Source: Gammaproteobacteria bacterium
GTDB lineage: Bacteria; Pseudomonadota; Gammaproteobacteria; CAJXQU01
Direction: 5' to 3'
Assembly (NCBI GenBank): GCA_965238175.1
Contig: CBDEGZ010000003.1
Coordinates: 1,536,001-1,600,000, forward strand
DNA: 64,000 nt
Each line of letters opens with the position of its first letter. Position 1 is the stretch's first letter. Made by a program: the position numbers and the translations under genes. Shown here in pieces: positions 51,730 through 64,000 of this stretch. The notes beneath the pieces were generated by a model. It saw only the letters and a program-made list of their open reading frames with translations. It had not been told where the DNA came from and did not search any database.

Positions 51730-52612
51730 TAAGCTTTCAAATTTGATCGAGCAGTTTTTAGACACGGCCTGGTCTGAACAAGGTTTGAGTGATAACACAC
51801 TAAGTTCATATCGATCAGATCTGACATTTTTTGCGAAATGGCTTATTAGCAATGATAAGCAGGTCAAAGAAGTCGGTTGGCAGGATTTGTTGAGTTTCCT
51901 AGATCATTTTGAAAAGGCCTCTCCGCGTAGTCGCGCACGTCGTTTGACCAGCTTGCGACGATTTTATCGATTTTTGATCCGTGAAGAATTGGTAGAAGAT
52001 GATCCTACCCGTCGACTTAAAACTCCTAGAGCAGGGCGCAGCCTTCCTAAAACTTTATCAGAAGATGAGGTTGAGGCTTTATTAACAGCTCCAAATATAG
52101 AAAAAACTTTAGGTTTACGTGATAAAGCTATGATTGAATTGCTTTATGCGACGGGATTACGTGTGTCAGAATTAGTTAATCTGACCATGCAAGAGATTAA
52201 TTTAAACCAAGGTGTTGTACGAATTACCGGTAAGGGCGATAAGGAAAGAATCGTTCCAGTAGGTGAGGAAGCTGTTCATTGGTTGGAAAGTTATCTGGAA
52301 GAAGCACGTTCTGATTTACTCAAAGGTCAAGTTTCGGATGCCTTATTCCCAGCTCGGCAGGGAAAGCCAATTGGCCGACATGCGTTCTGGCACCGAATTA
52401 AGCAACATACGACAACTGCAGGCATTGATAAATCGATATCACCTCATACATTACGACATGCTTTTGCCACGCATTTACTAAATCATGGTGCAGATCTAAG
52501 AGTGGTTCAAATGCTTTTAGGTCATCGAGATATTTCAACAACACAGATCTACACACACGTTGCACAAGCAAGATTACAAAATTTACACGCAGCCCATCAT
52601 CCAAGAGCATAA
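51719..52612 (+). CDS. xerD: Tyrosine recombinase XerD
   Basis: GLSDNTLSSYRSDL, LYATGLRVSEL, SPHTLRHAFATHLLNHGADLR, TTQIYTHV. Confidence 0.95.
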   Translation: MVINKLSNLIEQFLDTAWSEQGLSDNTLSSYRSDLTFFAKWLISNDKQVKEVGWQDLLSFLDHFEKASPRSRARRLTSLRRFYRFLIREELVEDDPTRRLKTPRAGRSLPKTLSEDEVEALLTAPNIEKTLGLRDKAMIELLYATGLRVSELVNLTMQEINLNQGVVRITGKGDKERIVPVGEEAVHWLESYLEEARSDLLKGQVSDALFPARQGKPIGRHAFWHRIKQHTTTAGIDKSISPHTLRHAFATHLLNHGADLRVVQMLLGHRDISTTQIYTHVAQARLQNLHAAHHPRA

Positions 52613-56613: not shown

Positions 56614-57680
56614 CGCGTCCCGCTCGTGTTGTCATTGATCTAAACGCCTTCCGGTCAAACCTACAAACCACTAGAAAATATGCGCCAGATCAAAAAGTCA
56701 TGGCGATAATCAAAGCCGATGCTTATGGTCATGGTTTGGAACGCGTCGCAAATCAGCTTGGTGATGCAGATGCTTTTGGTGTCGCCTGTCTCGAAGAAGC
56801 TATTCGATTACGTACTGCTGGATTCACAAAACCGATCATCTTGTTGGAAGGATTTTTCTCTGCTGAAGAATTAGATCAGCTTTCAGAACTTAATTTGCAA
56901 ACTGTTATTCACCAGAATAATCAACTCGAATTGATCGAAAAACTTCCTGCCGATAAAGCAATTAATGTCTGGCTCAAAATTGATACCGGAATGCATCGCT
57001 TAGGATTTGATCTGGATCTTGTTTCTTCCGTTTTTAGCCGATTAAAAAAAGCAAAAGGTGCTGATCAAATAAAGTTAATGACGCACTTTGCTTCTAGCCA
57101 GCCAGACTCGATGGAATCTCAATTAGCTAATTTTTTTAAGGTTGTGTCTGATCTAGAAGGCGAGCATTGTCTGGCAAATTCGGGCGCCATTATAGAATGG
57201 TCCGCAGCTCATGGTGATTGGATCCGCCCCGGTTTGATGCTTTATGGTGTTTCACCATTTGTTGACCAAACTGGAGTAGAACTTGGTTTAAAACCCGTCA
57301 TGTCACTACATTCAGAATTGATCTCAGTGAAGCAGGCTAAAAAGGGCGAAAAAGTCGGCTATGGTGGAACATGGGAATGCCCTGAAGATATGCCGATTGG
57401 TGTTATTGCCATGGGTTATGGCGATGGCTACCCACGTCATGCACGTTCTGGGACACCGATGTTGATCAATAATCAAACCGCTGGACTCATCGGGCGACCA
57501 TCAATGGATATGCTGACCGTCGATTTGCGTCAATGTCCCGATGCAAAGATTGGTGATCCCGTGATACTTTGGGGTGAAGACTTGCCTGTCGAAGAGATTG
57601 CTCGTTGTGCTGAGACAATTCCTTATGAATTACTTTGTGGTATGCGTATGCGCGCCCGATTTGTTGAGATAAATGGCTAA
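56610..57680 (+). CDS. alr: Alanine racemase
   Basis: IKADAYGHG, KIDTGMHRLG, RPGLMLYG, GYGDGYPR. Confidence 0.97.
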   Translation: MTRPARVVIDLNAFRSNLQTTRKYAPDQKVMAIIKADAYGHGLERVANQLGDADAFGVACLEEAIRLRTAGFTKPIILLEGFFSAEELDQLSELNLQTVIHQNNQLELIEKLPADKAINVWLKIDTGMHRLGFDLDLVSSVFSRLKKAKGADQIKLMTHFASSQPDSMESQLANFFKVVSDLEGEHCLANSGAIIEWSAAHGDWIRPGLMLYGVSPFVDQTGVELGLKPVMSLHSELISVKQAKKGEKVGYGGTWECPEDMPIGVIAMGYGDGYPRHARSGTPMLINNQTAGLIGRPSMDMLTVDLRQCPDAKIGDPVILWGEDLPVEEIARCAETIPYELLCGMRMRARFVEING

Positions 57681-59040
57681 ACAAAAAAAACAATATGAAT
57701 GTCAGTCTTGCGGTGCGGTTAGTCCAAAATGGGCAGGGCAGTGCGGCGATTGTGGTGAATGGAATAGCCTGACAGAATCGATCATCGTTCAAGCGACGGC
57801 GACAAATGATCGTATTGGAAATTACAGCGGCAGTGCACCGGCGATCTGCAATCTTGATGAGGCCGACTTAACCGAGGAAATCCGCTATACCACCCATATT
57901 GAAGAATTAGATCGTGCCATGGGAGGCGGGTTAGTTACAGGATCGGTGATTCTGATCGGCGGTGATCCGGGTATCGGCAAATCCACATTATTACTGCAAC
58001 TGCTTGCTGCAATCTCTAAAGATCAGATGAAAACGCTTTATGTCAGCGGTGAAGAATCTGCCCGACAAGTGGCAATGCGCGGCAAACGACTAGTGCTGGA
58101 TCTGACCGATTTGCGCCTTCTTACAGAAACCAATGTCGAACGGATCCTGACTACCGCACAGAAGGAAATGCCTAAAGTGATGGTGATCGATTCAATACAA
58201 ACGATCCATACAGAACAACTCTCATCAGCGCCAGGTAATGTTGCTCAAGTTAGAGAAAGCGCCGCCAAGATTGTGCGTTTTGCAAAACAAACCGGAACGA
58301 CTATTTTACTGGTTGGTCATGTCACAAAAGACGGTGCACTTGCAGGCCCTCGTGTGTTGGAGCATATGGTTGATACCGTGCTCTATTTTGAAGGTGATAG
58401 CGGCAGTCGTTTCCGCTTAATTCGGGCGATCAAAAACCGTTTCGGTGCAGTCAATGAACTGGGTGTTTTTGCCATGACCGATACTGGTTTAAAAGGCGTA
58501 AATAATCCCTCGGCTATCTTTTTATCCCGACGTGAAGACGAAGCCTCAGGTAGCGTGGTGATGGTGACGAGAGAAGGCACACGTCCGTTAATGGTTGAAG
58601 TTCAGGCCTTAGTTGATGAATCAAAAGCAGGTAATCCAAGGCGTGTCGCAGTAGGGATGGATCAAAATCGACTTGGAATGTTGCTGGCCGTATTGCATCG
58701 ACATGCCGGGATAGCCACTTATGATCAAGATGTGTTTATTAATATCGTAGGTGGCGTTCGGATCACAGAAACCGGTGCTGATCTGGCTGTTATACTGGCG
58801 ATTTTATCAAGCTTAAGGAATCAACCTTTGCCAACAGATTTGATCGTCTTTGGTGAAGTCGGTTTAACCGGCGAACTACGCCCAGTCCAAAATGGTCAGG
58901 AAAGACTTAACGAGGCACAAAAGCATGGCTTTAAACAAGCAATAGTTCCGAAAGCGAATCTTCCAAAGCAAAAAATAAAAGGGATCGAAATAAAAGGGGC
59001 GGCTACTTTAGATGCGGCGCTTGGTTTTTTGAGGGGTTAG
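57673..59040 (+). CDS. radA: DNA repair protein RadA/Sms
   Basis: Zn ribbon CQSC...CGDC, GDPGIGKST, KNRFG. Confidence 0.98.
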   Translation: MAKQKKQYECQSCGAVSPKWAGQCGDCGEWNSLTESIIVQATATNDRIGNYSGSAPAICNLDEADLTEEIRYTTHIEELDRAMGGGLVTGSVILIGGDPGIGKSTLLLQLLAAISKDQMKTLYVSGEESARQVAMRGKRLVLDLTDLRLLTETNVERILTTAQKEMPKVMVIDSIQTIHTEQLSSAPGNVAQVRESAAKIVRFAKQTGTTILLVGHVTKDGALAGPRVLEHMVDTVLYFEGDSGSRFRLIRAIKNRFGAVNELGVFAMTDTGLKGVNNPSAIFLSRREDEASGSVVMVTREGTRPLMVEVQALVDESKAGNPRRVAVGMDQNRLGMLLAVLHRHAGIATYDQDVFINIVGGVRITETGADLAVILAILSSLRNQPLPTDLIVFGEVGLTGELRPVQNGQERLNEAQKHGFKQAIVPKANLPKQKIKGIEIKGAATLDAALGFLRG

Positions 59041-59383
59041 TCTTAATAGTAGTTCAATAAGAATGTAGCTAGTTGTCCCAATGAATGCTCGCCATAACCA
59101 CGGGTTTTATCGTTCAAAATAATTCCACCAAGATTAACTATATATTTCTCAAAAACTATCTCCTTAGCAGATTGATTATTTTGGTTTTACTTCGGAAGCT
59201 TCCATCTTTAAAAATACACAGATTTCCTGAACGTCAAAATACATAGGAAATTGTAAAGTTTGTTTAACTGTCTATCATCGCCCCTAGATATGGGAGAGGA
59301 TAAGTGAAAGTACTAAAAATAGTCTAGAGCATTGTACGAAGGGTGCTATCAATCAAACTGAAACAAAATCTAAGGAAGTTAAA

Positions 59384-59842
59384 ATGTATAGAAAACTAGT
59401 GTTAATTACTTTTGTGTCATTTTTATTCACAGGTTGTGCCTCAGTCCCTATGGAAAGTACTGATAGAACCGATACTGTAAAGGAGTTTAATTCACCTTCA
59501 GACAAAAGTGCAGGGTTGTATATCTACCGATCAGGCGGTTTCGGAGGATCCTTAAAAAAGGATATCTGGATTGACGGAGAATGCCTTGGTGAAACGGCTC
59601 CTAACGTTTTCTTCTATGAAGAAGTTCAAGGTGACGGAGAACATAAACTCTCTACAGAATCTGAATTTTCACCTAATGATTTGGTGATTAAAACAGAAAG
59701 TGGTAAGAATTACTTCGTTAAGCAATATATTAAATTCGGTTTGTTTGTTGGAGGTGCAGGTCTAGAACAGGTTGACGAAGAAGAGGGTAAAAAGGCCGTA
59801 GAGAAATTGAAGCTAGCTAAAAAAGGTAACTGTAGTAAATAA
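59384..59842 (+). CDS. DUF2846-like lipoprotein
   Basis: Lipobox FTGC, GLYIYR, GETAP, TESEFSPN, GKNYFVKQYI. Confidence 0.8.
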   Translation: MYRKLVLITFVSFLFTGCASVPMESTDRTDTVKEFNSPSDKSAGLYIYRSGGFGGSLKKDIWIDGECLGETAPNVFFYEEVQGDGEHKLSTESEFSPNDLVIKTESGKNYFVKQYIKFGLFVGGAGLEQVDEEEGKKAVEKLKLAKKGNCSK

Positions 59843-59940
59843 TATGAGGGGCTGTTTTAAAATATATAGTCTCGATGTTCAATATATGTCGCAAAGACAT
59901 ACAATAATTTTTTGACCTTGCTGCATCCTTTATTCAGTAT

Positions 59941-59970
59941 TGTTGGCTTACGCGAGAATAAGCCTACCTA
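59941..59970. repeat. REP-like palindrome related to 549-577
   Basis: GTTGGCTTA-CGCGAGAA-TAAGCCTAC; the reverse strand begins TAGGTAGG. Confidence 0.6.
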
Positions 59971-60050
59971 GTCGCCCCTTAATAAACCAGAATTACTCCG
60001 AAGATGATTTGCAGGAATGCATATTTCACTTTTATCTCCATTACTTTTAT

Positions 60051-60193
60051 GCCTAACATCTATTCTATGGAATCATTCCAAAATATATCTCGATAAGTGA
60101 CAGTAATTGTCACAACTATTAAGTAATGTGAATAGCTATATTGAGCCGATAATGACCTTCAAGACTGCACTAAAAAGGGTCGGTTTTGGTGCA
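60051..60193 (-). mobile_element. attI-like module, copy A
   Basis: Roughly 80% identical (by eye) to 61322-61464; homology stops at GTTA, the integron crossover point (here GTTAGGC). Confidence 0.65.
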
Positions 60194-60250
60194 CTGAATT
60201 TAAGGCGGCTTACGAGAAAAAGCAGAGACTTTTAACGGTTGAGCCACCTG

Positions 60251-60688
60251 TTAACTGTTTGCATCTACTTTAGCCCTGAACGACACAGGAAAACCATTAA
60301 ACTGTACGCCATTTTGATAAAGAAACATCATTCCATAGACTGCGCTTGCCGACTTTCCTGATCCGGAAAGCTTCCAGCCAGATAGAACCAATTTGTATCT
60401 GATGCCAAATTCACCATCGTGATATTCAATAAGAACAATATCGTCAAGAATTTTCATATTCTCTGGCTTGGAATAAACAGCGATAACCTTACCATCTTTG
60501 GATTTGCGGGAAAATTTCGTGGAGTTATCTTGTGAGATAACTAACTTTTGTTTTTCACCTTTCACCACCACATAGCTCGACACCCAATCTCCAATCAATC
60601 CATTAGGCACAATTGGGCGAGTGGTACTTTTTTCAGCTATAACTGAAAAAGAAACCATCAATATAAGTAATATTCGAATCATGGTCAT
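60251..60688 (-). CDS. Secreted hypothetical protein in an integron gene cassette
   Basis: Signal peptide; cassette begins GTTAACT (60697-60691) and its stop overlaps the complementary AGTTAAC (60256-60250). Confidence 0.8.
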   Translation of the reverse strand: MTMIRILLILMVSFSVIAEKSTTRPIVPNGLIGDWVSSYVVVKGEKQKLVISQDNSTKFSRKSKDGKVIAVYSKPENMKILDDIVLIEYHDGEFGIRYKLVLSGWKLSGSGKSASAVYGMMFLYQNGVQFNGFPVSFRAKVDANS

Positions 60689-60690
60689 AC

Positions 60691-60760
60691 AGTTAACGTC
60701 GCAATAAAAGGCGCGCGCCTTTTGCGCGTCCAGCCCACGCCTTTTATTGCTTTGTTATGA
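60691..60760 (-). mobile_element. attC site (70 bp)
   Basis: TCATAAC AAA GCAATAAAAGGCG...CGCCTTTTATTGC GAC GTTAACT; perfect 13-bp arms between R'' and R'. Confidence 0.88.
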
Positions 60761-60769
60761 GTTTTAAAT

Positions 60770-61306
60770 TCAAACATTTCTACCAAACCAATTTAGGCTT
60801 TTAGTGTATGGTGAAAAATTGGTTTCATAGACATCTGTATATATTACTGTACAGCTTAATTCCTTTAACCATACCCTGCATAAATCACGGGCTTCTGAAA
60901 AATTTGAATCATCTTTAGCTTCTGTAAGCTCCAATAATGGAATAAAGTCACCCGGCATAATTGAGCGGTTATTTAAATCAGTTGCAAAGTGCGTCCATGG
61001 TCTATTCTCTGGCAGTTTCCTCATCCACTTAACTATATCGGACTTTGATTCAGCCCCTTTTGTTACTGTAAGGCTCTTGATAATAAGTGGGCCAGAGCCA
61101 CGGAGGCTATTTTCATAATCAGCAACTGTTATTTCTGGTATTGGTGAAACCGACAAAGTGTTGTTTTTTTTCTGATGCTTAAGGGAAGTGACGGAAACAT
61201 AAATAGAAATCGATGATGCTAACAATGCTAAAAAAGCAATAATCACCCTCATTGTTGCCGCCAAGGCACTAGCTACACTAGTATTTTCAATTAGAAATTC
61301 ATACAT
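60770..61306 (-). CDS. Membrane-anchored hypothetical protein in an integron gene cassette
   Basis: N-terminal TM; cassette starts GTTATGAG (61328-61321) and ends CTCATAAC (60761-60754). Confidence 0.8.
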   Translation of the reverse strand: MYEFLIENTSVASALAATMRVIIAFLALLASSISIYVSVTSLKHQKKNNTLSVSPIPEITVADYENSLRGSGPLIIKSLTVTKGAESKSDIVKWMRKLPENRPWTHFATDLNNRSIMPGDFIPLLELTEAKDDSNFSEARDLCRVWLKELSCTVIYTDVYETNFSPYTKSLNWFGRNV

Positions 61307-61321
61307 AATGATTCCTTAGAC

Positions 61322-61539
61322 TCATAACATCTATTATATGGAACCATTCCAGAATATACCTCGATGAATGACAATAATTGTCACAACTGCTAAGTAATGT
61401 GAATGGCTACATTAACCTGATAGAAGCCATCCAGACTGCACCAAAAGGGTTTGGTTTTGGTGCATCAATCCATAACTTTCTAAACCCTTGATTTTGTTAT
61501 AACTGGACTGCACTAAAAGCGTGGTGCAAAACTGATACA
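61322..61539 (-). mobile_element. attI-like module, copy B, with IHF site and repeated GACTGCAC motifs
   Basis: Ends CATATAA-TAGAT-GTTATGA; TGACAAT-A-ATTGTCA palindrome; TGCACCAAAA-N8-TTTTGGTGCA; IHF consensus AATCAAGGGTTTA at 61481-61493. Confidence 0.65.
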
Positions 61540-61554
61540 TTAAATTTAATGTTG

Positions 61555-62298
61555 TTACCGTTGACTTAAAACTTCAATCAATAGCTTCTTAACCTGCTGC
61601 ATGCCTTTTTCAAGATGCTGTTCAATTTGTTTCATTGAGATCTCTTTTTCGCCGTTTCGCCCAGCTGCTGGGTTTACAATAACTGCACAAGTTGCGTAAG
61701 AAAGATCGAGTTCTCTTGCTAGCGCCGCTTCTGGCATGCCGGTCATTCCGACCATGTCACAACCGTCTTTTTCCATGCGATCAATTTCTGCGGCGGTTTC
61801 TAGTCGCGGGCCTTGTGTGGCGCCGTAGGTGCCACCATTTGAAATATCGATCTTTGCATGTTTTGCTGCTTTGATTATTTTTGATCTTAATTTTTCATTG
61901 TAGGGATGAGTAAAGTCAATATGTACGACTTCGCCTTTATCGCCATCATAAAAGGTATTTTGACGGCCAGCGGTATAGTCAATAATTTGATCAGGAATGG
62001 CCAGGCGGGAAGGTGTTAGTTCAGCAGTTATTCCACCAACGGCAGCAATGCTGATCACTTCGGAAATGCCGATTTCTTTTAATGCCCAGATATTTGCGCA
62101 ATAGTTGATCATGTGAGGTGGGATGGTATGACCCGCACCGTGTCTCGGCAAAAAAACGACTTCTTTACCCTTATGTTCACAAAAGGTGAGTGGTCCTGAA
62201 GGTTCTCCGAAAGGGGTGCGCATCACACGTCTTTTTAGGATATTAATCCCTTCGAGTTTGTTTAAGCCGGTACCGCCGATGATTGCTAGATCTGTCAT
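61555..62298 (-). CDS. mtnP: S-methyl-5'-thioinosine/thioadenosine phosphorylase
   Basis: AIIGGTG, TPFGEPS, LPRHG..HTIPPH, GPRLETAAE, VGMTGMPEA; NPAAG is more MTIP-like. Confidence 0.88.
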   Translation of the reverse strand: MTDLAIIGGTGLNKLEGINILKRRVMRTPFGEPSGPLTFCEHKGKEVVFLPRHGAGHTIPPHMINYCANIWALKEIGISEVISIAAVGGITAELTPSRLAIPDQIIDYTAGRQNTFYDGDKGEVVHIDFTHPYNEKLRSKIIKAAKHAKIDISNGGTYGATQGPRLETAAEIDRMEKDGCDMVGMTGMPEAALARELDLSYATCAVIVNPAAGRNGEKEISMKQIEQHLEKGMQQVKKLLIEVLSQR

Positions 62299-62587
62299 TT
62301 TATAGATTCTATTTTTAAGTAAGCTCTAGTTTAACGTTTTCAACGTTATTGTGTAGTTTACTGTTGATGGAAAAAGCTCAACCCATTGGAATATTTCTCT
62401 CATTTACTGAAAATTTAAAAATGGTGCTTAGTTTTTTTTTATTGTGGCCGATAGTAGTTCTATGACCTTCAGTTTTATAGGTTCAAAAATGATCAAAACA
62501 GTATGAAATCGCAGTACATTTGATCCTGAAACTGAATTTAATTCACAATTTTTATTTATAAACAGTTAGTTATGATCAGTATTTGGT

Positions 62588-62603
62588 TGGCACGACATAT
62601 GCA
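62588..62603 (+). promoter_or_regulatory. Putative sigma54 promoter
   Basis: TGGCACGACATATGCA gives GG-N10-GC at the correct spacing, ~80 bp before ATG 62682. Confidence 0.55.
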
Positions 62604-62681
62604 ATTACTACTTTGATAATGAGTTGAAAAAACTTGTTGTCTCGATCTATAGGGATCTTTAGATTAGAAAGGAGGCATACA

Positions 62682-63830
62682 ATGGACTACAGAACGTCAG
62701 TCACACCTGCTAAGACATCACAATCGTGGATGTCTTGTCTCTCACTCGGCTTGCTACTTTTTCTACAAACCATTCCATCTCAAGCTGAAAATTTAGCCGG
62801 AAATTTATTTGATCCGCCCGGTAAAATGGTCGATGTCGGTGGCTATTCTTTACATTTAAATTGTGTGGGTCGTGGTTCGCCGACGGTGATTTTGGAAACA
62901 GGCTTAGGCGGGATGTCTGTAGAATGGTATTCAATTCAGCACCAACTTAAGCAGCATACAAAAATATGTGCTTATGATCGGGCCGGTTACGGCTGGAGCG
63001 AAACAAGTAGCCAACCAAGGACGACGGAAAATATCGTTCATGAATTACACACGCTTTTGCATGTTGCAAATATTCCAGGGCCTTATGTTTTAGTTGGTCA
63101 TTCTTTTGGTGGTTATACCGTCCAGCATTTTGCTAGTCTTTATCCACAAGAAACTGCTGGAGTTGTTTTGGTTGATGCATCTCATCCAGAGCAAGTCGAT
63201 CGTTTTAAAAAGATTGGTTTGATCGTTGCGCCAACCAGAAAGGTAACGCATATCAAATTTAACAAACCACGCCTTCCTGCACATTATCCAGTAGACATGC
63301 GATATATCGCGCTACAGCAAATGCAAGATAGTAATACGATGAATGCTATTGCTGAAGAATATATTCATTTCAAACAAAGTGCACAGCAGGTGGCCAACTC
63401 TATGTCATTAAAATCCACGCCGATGATCGTCTTAACAAGAGGTATTCCGGGGTGGCAACGTATACGGCATGGGCGAAAATTTGAGCAGCTCTGGCAAAAA
63501 TTACAATCTGAGCTGACCGATCTCAGTTCTAGATCTTCACATCTTGTGGCAAATAAAAGCGGTCATCATATTCATTTAGATCAACCCGATTTGACCGTTG
63601 CGACTATAAGCAGGTTGGTTGAATTAGCCCGCAATAAGCAACGTAGTAAATGGGTAGAAATAAATCATAGCAGTAATAAAAGTATTCGCTGGTTAGCTAT
63701 GAAAGATGTTAGATGGCAACGTGACAGGTTAAGAACACGTTTACATGAGTGGCCTGTTTTTGATCCGAATTCTCGTCAAAACAAACTGTCTGCCAGTGAG
63801 TTAATGGTAAGTAATTACAGTAAATTTTGA
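62682..63830 (+). CDS. Secreted alpha/beta hydrolase
   Basis: AGGAGG RBS; signal peptide; YDRAGYGWS, VGHSFGG nucleophile elbow, SGHHIH; C-terminal extension. Confidence 0.88.
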   Translation: MDYRTSVTPAKTSQSWMSCLSLGLLLFLQTIPSQAENLAGNLFDPPGKMVDVGGYSLHLNCVGRGSPTVILETGLGGMSVEWYSIQHQLKQHTKICAYDRAGYGWSETSSQPRTTENIVHELHTLLHVANIPGPYVLVGHSFGGYTVQHFASLYPQETAGVVLVDASHPEQVDRFKKIGLIVAPTRKVTHIKFNKPRLPAHYPVDMRYIALQQMQDSNTMNAIAEEYIHFKQSAQQVANSMSLKSTPMIVLTRGIPGWQRIRHGRKFEQLWQKLQSELTDLSSRSSHLVANKSGHHIHLDQPDLTVATISRLVELARNKQRSKWVEINHSSNKSIRWLAMKDVRWQRDRLRTRLHEWPVFDPNSRQNKLSASELMVSNYSKF

Positions 63831-63973
63831 TCAGGTAGCTATTGCTGAAAAATAGTTTGTGAAACATTAAGGTTTGTTATTAGTCGTTATTAATACTTCT
63901 TAATTGCATTAGAGGATAGATACGCTTTACTATTACTATGCAATACACATTAAAATAATAAAGAGGTAGTCAG

Positions 63974-64000
63974 ATGAAGTTCTTAACAATAGTGACAGTA
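63974..64000 (+). CDS. Start of a gene running off the window (signal-peptide-like)
   Basis: GAGG RBS then ATG, MKFLTIVTV. Confidence 0.35.

Follow-up and report, generated by a model that had tools for sequence, protein, structure and literature searches.

A putative orphan attI-type platform at the head of a small integrase-less cassette array between mtnP and radA

Gene cassettes that lie far from any integrase gene raise the question of what they docked onto. This question is posed by a locus between mtnP and radA in a 64-kb stretch of gammaproteobacterial DNA (hereafter the window; 64,000 nucleotides of assembly GCA_965238175.1, contig CBDEGZ010000003.1, positions 1,536,001 to 1,600,000 of the forward strand), where two gene cassettes are bounded by two copies of a 140-nucleotide (nt) module. 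A first-pass annotation, made from the letters of the window, had taken this module for an attI-like site, and our results support this view in part. With moderate confidence, we read the locus as an orphan attI-type platform that heads a small two-cassette cluster of attC sites lacking integrase (CALIN) and contains a junction of the ΔattI type. The genome holding the locus (G000) amounts to 3.35 Mb, with a chromosome of 3.33 Mb. It was analysed in a comparison set of 7 genomes of its family, which is also the whole order; the set includes G000 and its congener G003.

The two module copies, B next to mtnP (61325-61464) and A at the far end of the cassettes (60054-60193), extend on the minus strand from a hairpin to a terminal GTTA. 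They are 82.9% identical over 140 nt, in line with the 80% judged by eye at first pass; taken as an ungapped direct repeat, 60040-60193 and 61311-61464 are 81% identical over 154 nt. As first noticed, the similarity stops after GTTA, the sequence being GTTA|GGC in A and GTTA|TGAG in B. In G003, the module again lies directly after mtnP and is followed by GTTA|TGCAG and by two different open reading frames (ORFs) of 92 and 111 amino acids (aa). Altogether, three copies lead into three different right sides, and the homology of B to both A and the G003 orthologue ends at this point. This is the behaviour of an attI site, in which the left side is conserved up to the G|TT crossover and the DNA to the right is unrelated. 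On the minus strand, the locus runs from mtnP through a 90-nt spacer into module B, the two cassettes and module A, with a lipoprotein gene and then radA beyond them:

61555-62298, minus strand: mtnP-like phosphorylase gene, the upstream flank, co-oriented with the cassettes (Pfam PNP_UDP_1, E 6.9e-41; G003 orthologue 83.6% identical)
61465-61554, minus strand: left extension of platform B, absent from copy A, with a degenerate half-hairpin (61506-61528) and a match to the integration host factor (IHF) consensus (61481-61493); 75.8% identical to G003 over 91 columns
61325-61464, minus strand: module B, the putative type-2 attI-like platform, with hairpin h2 (61437-61464), a GTGACA-N5-TGTCAT palindrome and the core GGAATGGTTCCATATAATAGATGTTA (61325-61350)
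60697-61327, minus strand: cassette 1, from its TTATGAG start through ORF178 (60770-61306, with an N-terminal membrane anchor) and attC1 up to the crossover G
60691-60761, minus strand: attC1, complete, with R'' CTCATAAC, a 13-bp stem and R' GTTAACT
60203-60696, minus strand: cassette 2, with a TTAACTG start, ORF145 (60251-60688, with a signal peptide) and the truncated attC2 (60203-60256)
60194-60202, minus strand: linker of 9 nt from attC2 to copy A
60054-60193, minus strand: module A, the second platform copy, with hairpin h3 (60166-60193) and the core GGAATGATTCCATAGAATAGATGTTA (60054-60079), in the place of the attC2 R' box
59979-60029, minus strand: 16-codon GTG...TAA frame after GTTAGGC, by sequence reading
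59384-59842, plus strand: DUF2846 lipoprotein gene (Pfam PF11008, E 1.6e-22), opposite in orientation to the array and not present at the G003 site
57673-59040, plus strand: radA, the downstream flank, convergent with mtnP and 87.9% identical to G003, named from a reading of its protein sequence rather than a family search

The end of the module resembles the attI sites of the genus. The attI of the G000 main integron ends in GGAAATATTCCTTATAATAATGTTA, and the module in GGAATGGTTCCATATAATAGATGTTA (B) or GGAATGATTCCATAGAATAGATGTTA (A). We built an attI-core matrix from five genus cores (the intI-linked attI of G000 and four G003 sites) and ran it over both strands of the 3.33-Mb chromosome, allowing one gap. 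The true attI ranked first (35.9 bits), the end of module B second (24.8) and the end of module A fourth (19.8). Moreover, the pattern GGAA-N3-TTCC-N9-12-GTTA has four matches in G000, namely the true attI, A, B and one other. When the same pattern was applied to G003 as a prediction, it yielded 5 matches versus 1 for a reversed control; these were the module at mtnP and four sites of the form GGAA(ACG/GCA)TTCCTCATAATAATGTTA. Module and attI also have a common layout, consisting of a GTGA...TCAC palindrome, 16-17 nt, GGAA-N3-TTCC, 10-11 nt and GTTA. Hence, the comparison with the attI of a distant intI that had been proposed at first pass revealed an alike 26-nt core and layout, while homology over the whole region went undetected.

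No intI was found in the 64-kb window by an integron-integrase family search, in agreement with the first-pass annotation. The sole integron integrase of G000 above the TIGR02249 cut-off (396.5 bits versus 265) lies 578 kb from the window, at C3:2174968-2175916, with the family match itself at C3:2175053-2175916. This gene (L001) heads an attC array and is split between two frames near codon 40. The frameshift is identical in Logan contigs of runs X1 and X2, which derive from one sample, possibly the assembly's own source. An intI above the family cut-off is present in 6 of the 7 genomes. No intI was found in G003, even in a search with the G000 IntI protein, which returned only two Xer-type frames, and both intI matches of G005 cover only profile positions 1-221 of 315, each with a TAA. 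For the present day, these data do not support the earlier idea that the module seeds arrays in trans, as no functional IntI is evident in G000 (frameshifted) or G003 (none found).

Three side observations concern integrase genes and their attI sites. The second crossover box of the G000 main attI reads AGACT-TTACACG, versus AGACTGTTA in three G003 copies, and the crossover G seems to be missing from it. Paired intI-attI units are 98.6% identical over 1243 bp in G006 (L024 versus L027) and 99.3% identical over 1269 bp in G005 (L026 versus L028). In these pairs, the attI crossover and the approximate position of the intI stop bound the identity, with unrelated DNA on either side, a pattern that points to a platform duplicated or gene-converted as a unit. 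Finally, the window carries an Xer-type tyrosine recombinase gene (51776-52570, plus strand, a 302-aa frame), conserved in G003 and with no link to the cassette locus; two of its segments score 82.6 and 66.7 bits with the integron-integrase model, under the cut-off.

The two cassettes that follow copy B have complementary ends, GTTATGAG...CTCATAAC in cassette 1 and GTTAACTG...CAGTTAAC in cassette 2. The attC that joins them, attC1, has a DNA fold of -20.9/-20.8 kcal/mol (z -6.0/-6.6 versus shuffles), and its layout, TAACAA...CGTTA, is that of 15 attCs of the genome's main array. A simple attC finder missed attC1 because just 4 of 7 R''/R' positions are complementary. A hand-drawn structure of the 15 array attCs paired only 63% of the cells. 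Since their RNAalifold consensus contained no base pairs, our attC model was sequence-only; it did not score attC1 at E<=1 and found two attCs of the mutS array of G003. The description of both cassettes as textbook examples stands for their ends and for attC1, and fails for attC2, which lacks the R' box. However, attC2 is not cut after some 20 bp, as had been stated: 54 nt remain (60203-60256), comprising R'' CAGTTAAC and both stem arms, AGGTGGCT and AGCCGCCT. The fold does contain this stem, though weakly (z -1.6). With one complete attC, a second without R' and no intI in the window, the array is a candidate CALIN, a class defined by at least two attCs without intI nearby. Neither cassette protein belongs to a Pfam family; no homologue was found for ORF178 in G000 or 5 congeners, nor for ORF145 in 5 congeners.

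At the distal end, attC2 without R' is succeeded by the 140-nt platform ending GTTA|GGC, which is the arrangement of a ΔattI-type cassette; the 54 nt of attC left in place are unusual. The GTTAGGC box and the decayed frame annotated after copy A were both recovered, the latter as 16 codons that probably remain from a former cassette gene. Neither search nor inspection by eye detected an attC after this frame, and 59041-60053 contains no significant repeat or attC-like structure; an attC2-like candidate downstream of copy A (59945-59963) was dropped at E 4.7. Elsewhere on the G000 chromosome, the simple finder located sites resembling attC, with TAAC...GTTA and a strong stem, away from the main array at C3 414096, 559526, 706418, 970886, 2018616-2028941 and 2355972. 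These are possible further CALINs or single attC sites lacking integrase (SALINs), including a cluster near 2.02 Mb.

Several points weigh against reading the module as an attI. First, no intI lies beside it, and adjacency to intI is the usual defining context of attI. Second, neither of the module-bearing genomes, G000 and G003, has an intact IntI. Because of this, the conservation of the module described below is not explained by current recombination. Moreover, searches of the 7 family genomes and of the genome, metagenome, viral, plasmid and phage collections brought up no copy of this module type linked to an intI. Profiles of whole type-1 attI regions miss the module at E<=10 within the window and at E<=1 genome-wide, as does the reverse search, and the pairwise local alignment is not significant, its score being reached by 16 and 26 of 300 shuffles. 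Hence, the attI likeness is limited to the 26-nt core and the layout. The GGAA-N3-TTCC-N9-12-GTTA pattern was derived after both sequences had been seen, and the conserved hairpin and palindrome are without an assigned role. In addition, where attC2 meets copy A, TTAAAT is not preceded by the G expected of a G|TT product, hence the junction is not a clean one. Conversely, none of the findings that the first-pass annotation had named as contrary to its proposal, such as homology extending past GTT or the remnant of an ordinary gene, was encountered.

The internal motifs of the module were largely confirmed. The three GACTGCAC(T/C)AAAA motifs (60163, 61434 and 61506) and the 10-8-10 inverted repeats (60166-60193 and 61437-61464), of the form TGCACCAAAA-N8-TTTTGGTGCA, are present and occur nowhere else in the 3.35-Mb genome. 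The IHF consensus site also exists and is kept in G003; it is one of 11 in the window versus 7.7 expected, and alone it is not significant. Nothing supports the TGT terminus proposed at 61539. The distance of about 15 nt between module and mtnP applies from this extended end, and the part shared by A and B is 90 nt away.

Other identities for the module were considered and rejected. It is not a long attC, as module A contains no TAAC, the TTATAAC upstream of B is TTATAGC in G003, and the module folds without R''/R' pairing (z -2.1 to -3.8). A plus-strand frame of 37-42 codons that spans both modules is interrupted in G003 by a 1-nt deletion and is thus no gene, and the IntI-like MYQ start of a 42-codon minus-strand frame has the wrong orientation and was judged a coincidence. 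An Rfam search of 58000-64000 at E<=1 gave nothing relevant, only a sub-threshold SurA match at 62415-62537. A promoter scan returned 7 sites versus 10.3±3.0 expected and we claim no promoter; one candidate in module B (TTCACA-18-AATTAT) is not retained in copy A. No sigma-54 promoter (GG-N10-GC) was seen by eye downstream of the NtrC-like half-sites of the hairpin. These half-sites recur, with a spacing 11 nt shorter, in two 17-nt palindromes TGCAC(C/T)-N5-(A/G)GTGCA of G000 (C3:584821-584837 and 1834142-1834158), which we take to resemble NtrC-type sites.

The module is present in 2 of the 7 genomes, G000 and G003, at the same mtnP|radA site, and blastn with both modules found only the two copies at the mtnP locus in the 3.35-Mb genome. 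The suggested search of genome and relatives thus recovered a G003 copy with different cassettes, and no other sites in the 7 genomes. Exact-pattern scans for hairpin and core gave only two overlapping loci on one congener contig in genome_contigs and 0 loci in metagenome_contigs and viral_contigs; module B had no blastn match (distant setting) among plasmids and phages. The site is empty in G002 and G006, where mtnP and radA are convergent and <=16 nt apart. The region contains one extra gene in G005 and other neighbours in G001, and no mtnP match was found in G004. Of the linker before h3, 8 nt (AAATTCAG, window 60194-60201) reappear in the spacer of the empty G006 site, which is 16 nt long (ATCAACAAATTCAGTT, L014); the match may be a remnant of the ancestral spacer or chance.

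Comparison of the two occupied sites indicates that the module is old and conserved. The G003 array ends in CTCATAAC, 8 nt and the hairpin, with only module positions 1-40 recognisable (E 2.6e-7), and this hairpin carries A-type substitutions. Because the A-type hairpin is common to both genomes, the duplication that gave A and B happened before the two species separated. Between G000 and G003, module B shows 87.9% identity (123/140, one gap), compared with 60.1% and 69.1% at the third codon positions of mtnP and radA and 70.7% (52 gap columns) in the mtnP-hydrolase spacer; tested against 0.707, this gives a binomial p of 1.2e-6. Third-position identity does not rise in the last third of mtnP (67%), which makes a recent transfer patch unlikely. 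Judged from this alignment, the module is under constraint. The cassettes differ between the two genomes and are absent from 5 congeners.

This conservation is relevant to an alternative that we consider unlikely, namely that the module is conserved DNA of an ordinary intergenic or regulatory kind, for instance a promoter or operator or a spacer with a hairpin, and contains a good secondary site of the attG type into which off-target IntI activity inserted the cassettes. Such insertion at genomic attG sites, giving small CALINs or SALINs, is documented (bioRxiv 10.1101/2022.09.11.507474). The conservation of the module where no intact IntI is encoded suggests another function, its palindromes are typical of protein-binding sites and it has no whole-length homology to the attI region. 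However, the spacer is absent in G002 and G006, which implies that the module came with the insertion and was not resident DNA. Moreover, attG needs a right-hand motif, according to the same source, whereas the module, like attI, is conserved only on its left, with any cassette on the right. The rank of the core against true attI cores and the second module copy within the array also argue against resident regulatory DNA.

An orphan attI-type platform at mtnP would not stand alone in this clade. G003 contains four further orphan platforms of the G000 main-integron type (L043 on C10, L044 on C24, L045 on C40 and L046 on C69), three of them immediately downstream of mutS, of a Na:Ala symporter gene and of a WD40 gene, respectively, with the fourth at a contig end where only the last 26 nt are visible. 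Ahead of three of the four sites lies a match of about 200 nt to a profile in which the G000 intI-attI spacer was included. Cassettes follow all four, and none of them lies beside an integrase. The mutS platform retains the spacer up to the first intI codons; its junction with mutS falls at GTTA, and G000 carries a perfect GTTAGGG core at this point. An orphan platform of G006 retains nearly the whole spacer. In G005 and G006 the attI core is of another type, GGACA-N3-TGTCC-N8-13-GTTA, with 7 matches in G005 versus 0 for the control. Only 2 of these 7 are beside intI, leaving five orphan platforms, and G006 has one orphan attI (L056) plus two intI-linked ones. Thus attI cores outnumber integrase genes by 7 to 2 in G005 (L051, L053, L057, L059) and by 3 to 2 in G006.

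Two G005 arrays mirror the window. In each, a platform comes after a co-oriented housekeeping ORF and leads into cassettes with normal attCs; the next cassette has a truncated attC in one array and no attC in the other, and it precedes a second copy of the platform and one more cassette. The G005 copies match the intI-linked platform over about 155 nt and diverge exactly after GTTA. Type-1 copies have different left ends in all 3 cases that were resolved. All resolved array-head orphan platforms follow the stop codon of a co-oriented ORF: mtnP in G000 and G003; mutS, the Na:Ala symporter gene and the WD40 gene in G003; three ORFs in G005; and one in G006.

Small repeats were also seen around these arrays. 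In 3 of the 4 G003 orphan platforms, a 32-nt hairpin 'mini-cassette' (TTATGCGGGAAnnnTTCCCGTATAACAGACTG) stands between two GTTA boxes, and a short hairpin (AAAAGGGGTCAGACCCCTTT) recurs at G003 array ends. Three G005 orphan copies have an extra segment of about 95 nt in common, with a 60-nt palindromic insertion in one copy. In G000, mutS is closely followed by an IS30-like element (C3:3069720-3070830), of which about 160 nt have 92-94% matches at four G000 places and inside a G003 cassette array (L046:479-647). A palindromic repeat of 82-120 nt (AACCTGATGTGATGGTCTCCTCCCCC...), with at least 7 copies in G000 (C3 6639, 1154708, 1285807, 1393266, 1789947, 2299119 and 2912235), is probably an insertion sequence (IS) end or a miniature inverted-repeat transposable element (MITE).

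The orphan platforms of the congeners bear on a second alternative, which we rank next and also hold to be improbable. According to it, the module is a small non-autonomous mobile attI unit, carried for instance in circles excised by IntI, that seeds arrays, including 5' of the GTT of existing attCs. Excision of module A with its 9-nt linker would restore attC2 with R' GTTA, the GTTA junction of the G003 mutS platform corresponds to a perfect core in G000, and three G005 copies have the extra segment of about 95 nt in common. Multiple copies, as proposed earlier, are seen for orphan platforms of other types, with four copies in G003, five in G005 and one in G006, and not for this module, with 2 copies at one chromosomal site in 2 of 7 genomes. 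The module is not a MITE or an IS by test, as no other genome match of >= 25 nt exists. Neither terminal inverted repeats (its ends, TGCACC... and ...GATGTTA, are not inverted repeats of each other) nor a target duplication or a parent element were found. In addition, the differing left ends of type-1 copies suit truncation better than a defined element, and the A/B duplication is older than the G000/G003 split.

A third alternative, that the hairpin or the module end is the core site of another tyrosine recombinase (Xer/dif-like or lox-like) with the repeats as attL and attR, is highly improbable: the 10-8-10 geometry presumably resembles recombinase core sites, the hairpins flank the cassette block in both genomes and the hairpin is the best-kept part of the decayed G003 copy, but the 2.5-kb island encodes no recombinase, the Xer-type gene of the window is a conserved housekeeping gene also found in G003, the hairpin is nowhere else in the genome and on only one congener contig in the scanned collections, and the variable DNA begins at GTTA, 110 nt from the hairpin. 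The dif-like end suggested at first pass likewise found no support.

Under the preferred reading of an orphan attI-type platform, the last 26 nt of the module (GGAA-N3-TTCC, an A/T-rich L-like box and GTTA) would belong to a double-stranded docking site recognised by the IntI of this lineage, and the cassettes would have been inserted at G|TT through attC x attI recombination. We infer that the platform reached the mtnP|radA spacer before the divergence of G000 and G003 and that its cassette content turned over afterwards. The integrase may have acted in trans from elsewhere or been lost, as intI is now frameshifted in G000 and was not found in G003. Today the locus would be a small CALIN with its own attI at the head, probably transcribed by read-through from mtnP, and copy A would be a second platform copy that replaced the R' end of the last attC. 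The platform may have originated by local loss of intI or by relocation of a block of attI plus array; the clean breaks at the intI start in G003 and G006 fit either.

More tentatively, and with considerable doubt, we suggest that the attI platforms of this genus multiply and move without the integrase, as 'satellite integrons' that depend on IntI in trans and persist after intI decay. Off-target IntI recombination near the intI start or at other GTT sites would detach attI plus array, which would then be re-seated after the stop of expressed housekeeping genes (mtnP, mutS, the Na:Ala symporter gene and others). Copies of attI would also take over from attC as cassette boundaries within arrays. 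If true, this could be the origin of many CALINs. These are common and of unsettled origin, and because attI is unknown for most integrons, the retention of a docking site could not be asked about. The clade offers recognisable attI cores, platforms that outnumber integrase genes, attI copies in the place of attC inside chromosomal arrays, and an orthologous orphan platform conserved while its cassettes turned over. It makes the competence of orphan platforms, the choice between intI loss and relocation, and the occurrence of attI-flanked cassettes outside clinical class 1 and 2 integrons testable. In a limited search of open-access full texts, we found no description of attI copies heading or lying inside integrase-less chromosomal arrays, and no occurrence of the term 'orphan attI'.

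The locus combines features of several known systems. For CALINs and SALINs, intI loss, rearrangement and insertion at secondary sites have been proposed as origins (PMC4889954; bioRxiv 10.1101/2022.09.11.507474). The window resembles them in its small array, with no intI within reach and an integron elsewhere in the genome. Surveys of CALINs could not search for attI, which is unknown for most integrons (PMC4889954). Unlike the surveyed CALINs, this array is headed by a recognisable attI-type site, and only one of its two attCs is complete. The attG site is an 18-bp sequence of 9+9 bp with a required right-hand motif (bioRxiv 10.1101/2022.09.11.507474). Like attG, the module would be a double-stranded target outside an integron at which IntI inserts cassettes, with expression from nearby host promoters. 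Unlike attG, its information lies wholly to the left of the crossover, over 26-140 nt, and it appears to be imported rather than resident. The canonical attI1 comprises L and R boxes plus DR1 and DR2 (PMC12901181). In common with it, the module has a G|TT crossover in a GTTRRRY-like box, preceded at 4-5 nt by an L-like box and farther upstream by repeats or palindromes, and variable cassettes to the right. It differs in not lying beside intI and in having palindromes (GGAA-N3-TTCC and the 10-8-10 hairpin) instead of direct repeats as accessory motifs. Finally, ΔattI-type cassettes have been described in class 1 and class 2 mobile integrons, with 14-244 nt of attI and including attI1-ΔaacA4-attI1 and ΔattI2-238, and in one instance complete attI1 stands on both sides (PMC12901181). 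For attI1-aadB-attI1, the same paper reports excision above 97%; the block from module B through the cassettes to module A likewise has an attI-X-attI form. As in those cassettes, the downstream site in the window is a stretch of attI up to the crossover G instead of a complete attC, and attI stands both upstream of and within the array. In contrast to them, the window case belongs to a sedentary chromosomal array without an integrase, involves a new attI sequence type and still has the attC R'' and both stem arms ahead of its ΔattI. By this analogy, copy A may be regarded as the chromosomal equivalent of a ΔattI-type cassette, and a long one at about 140-150 nt.

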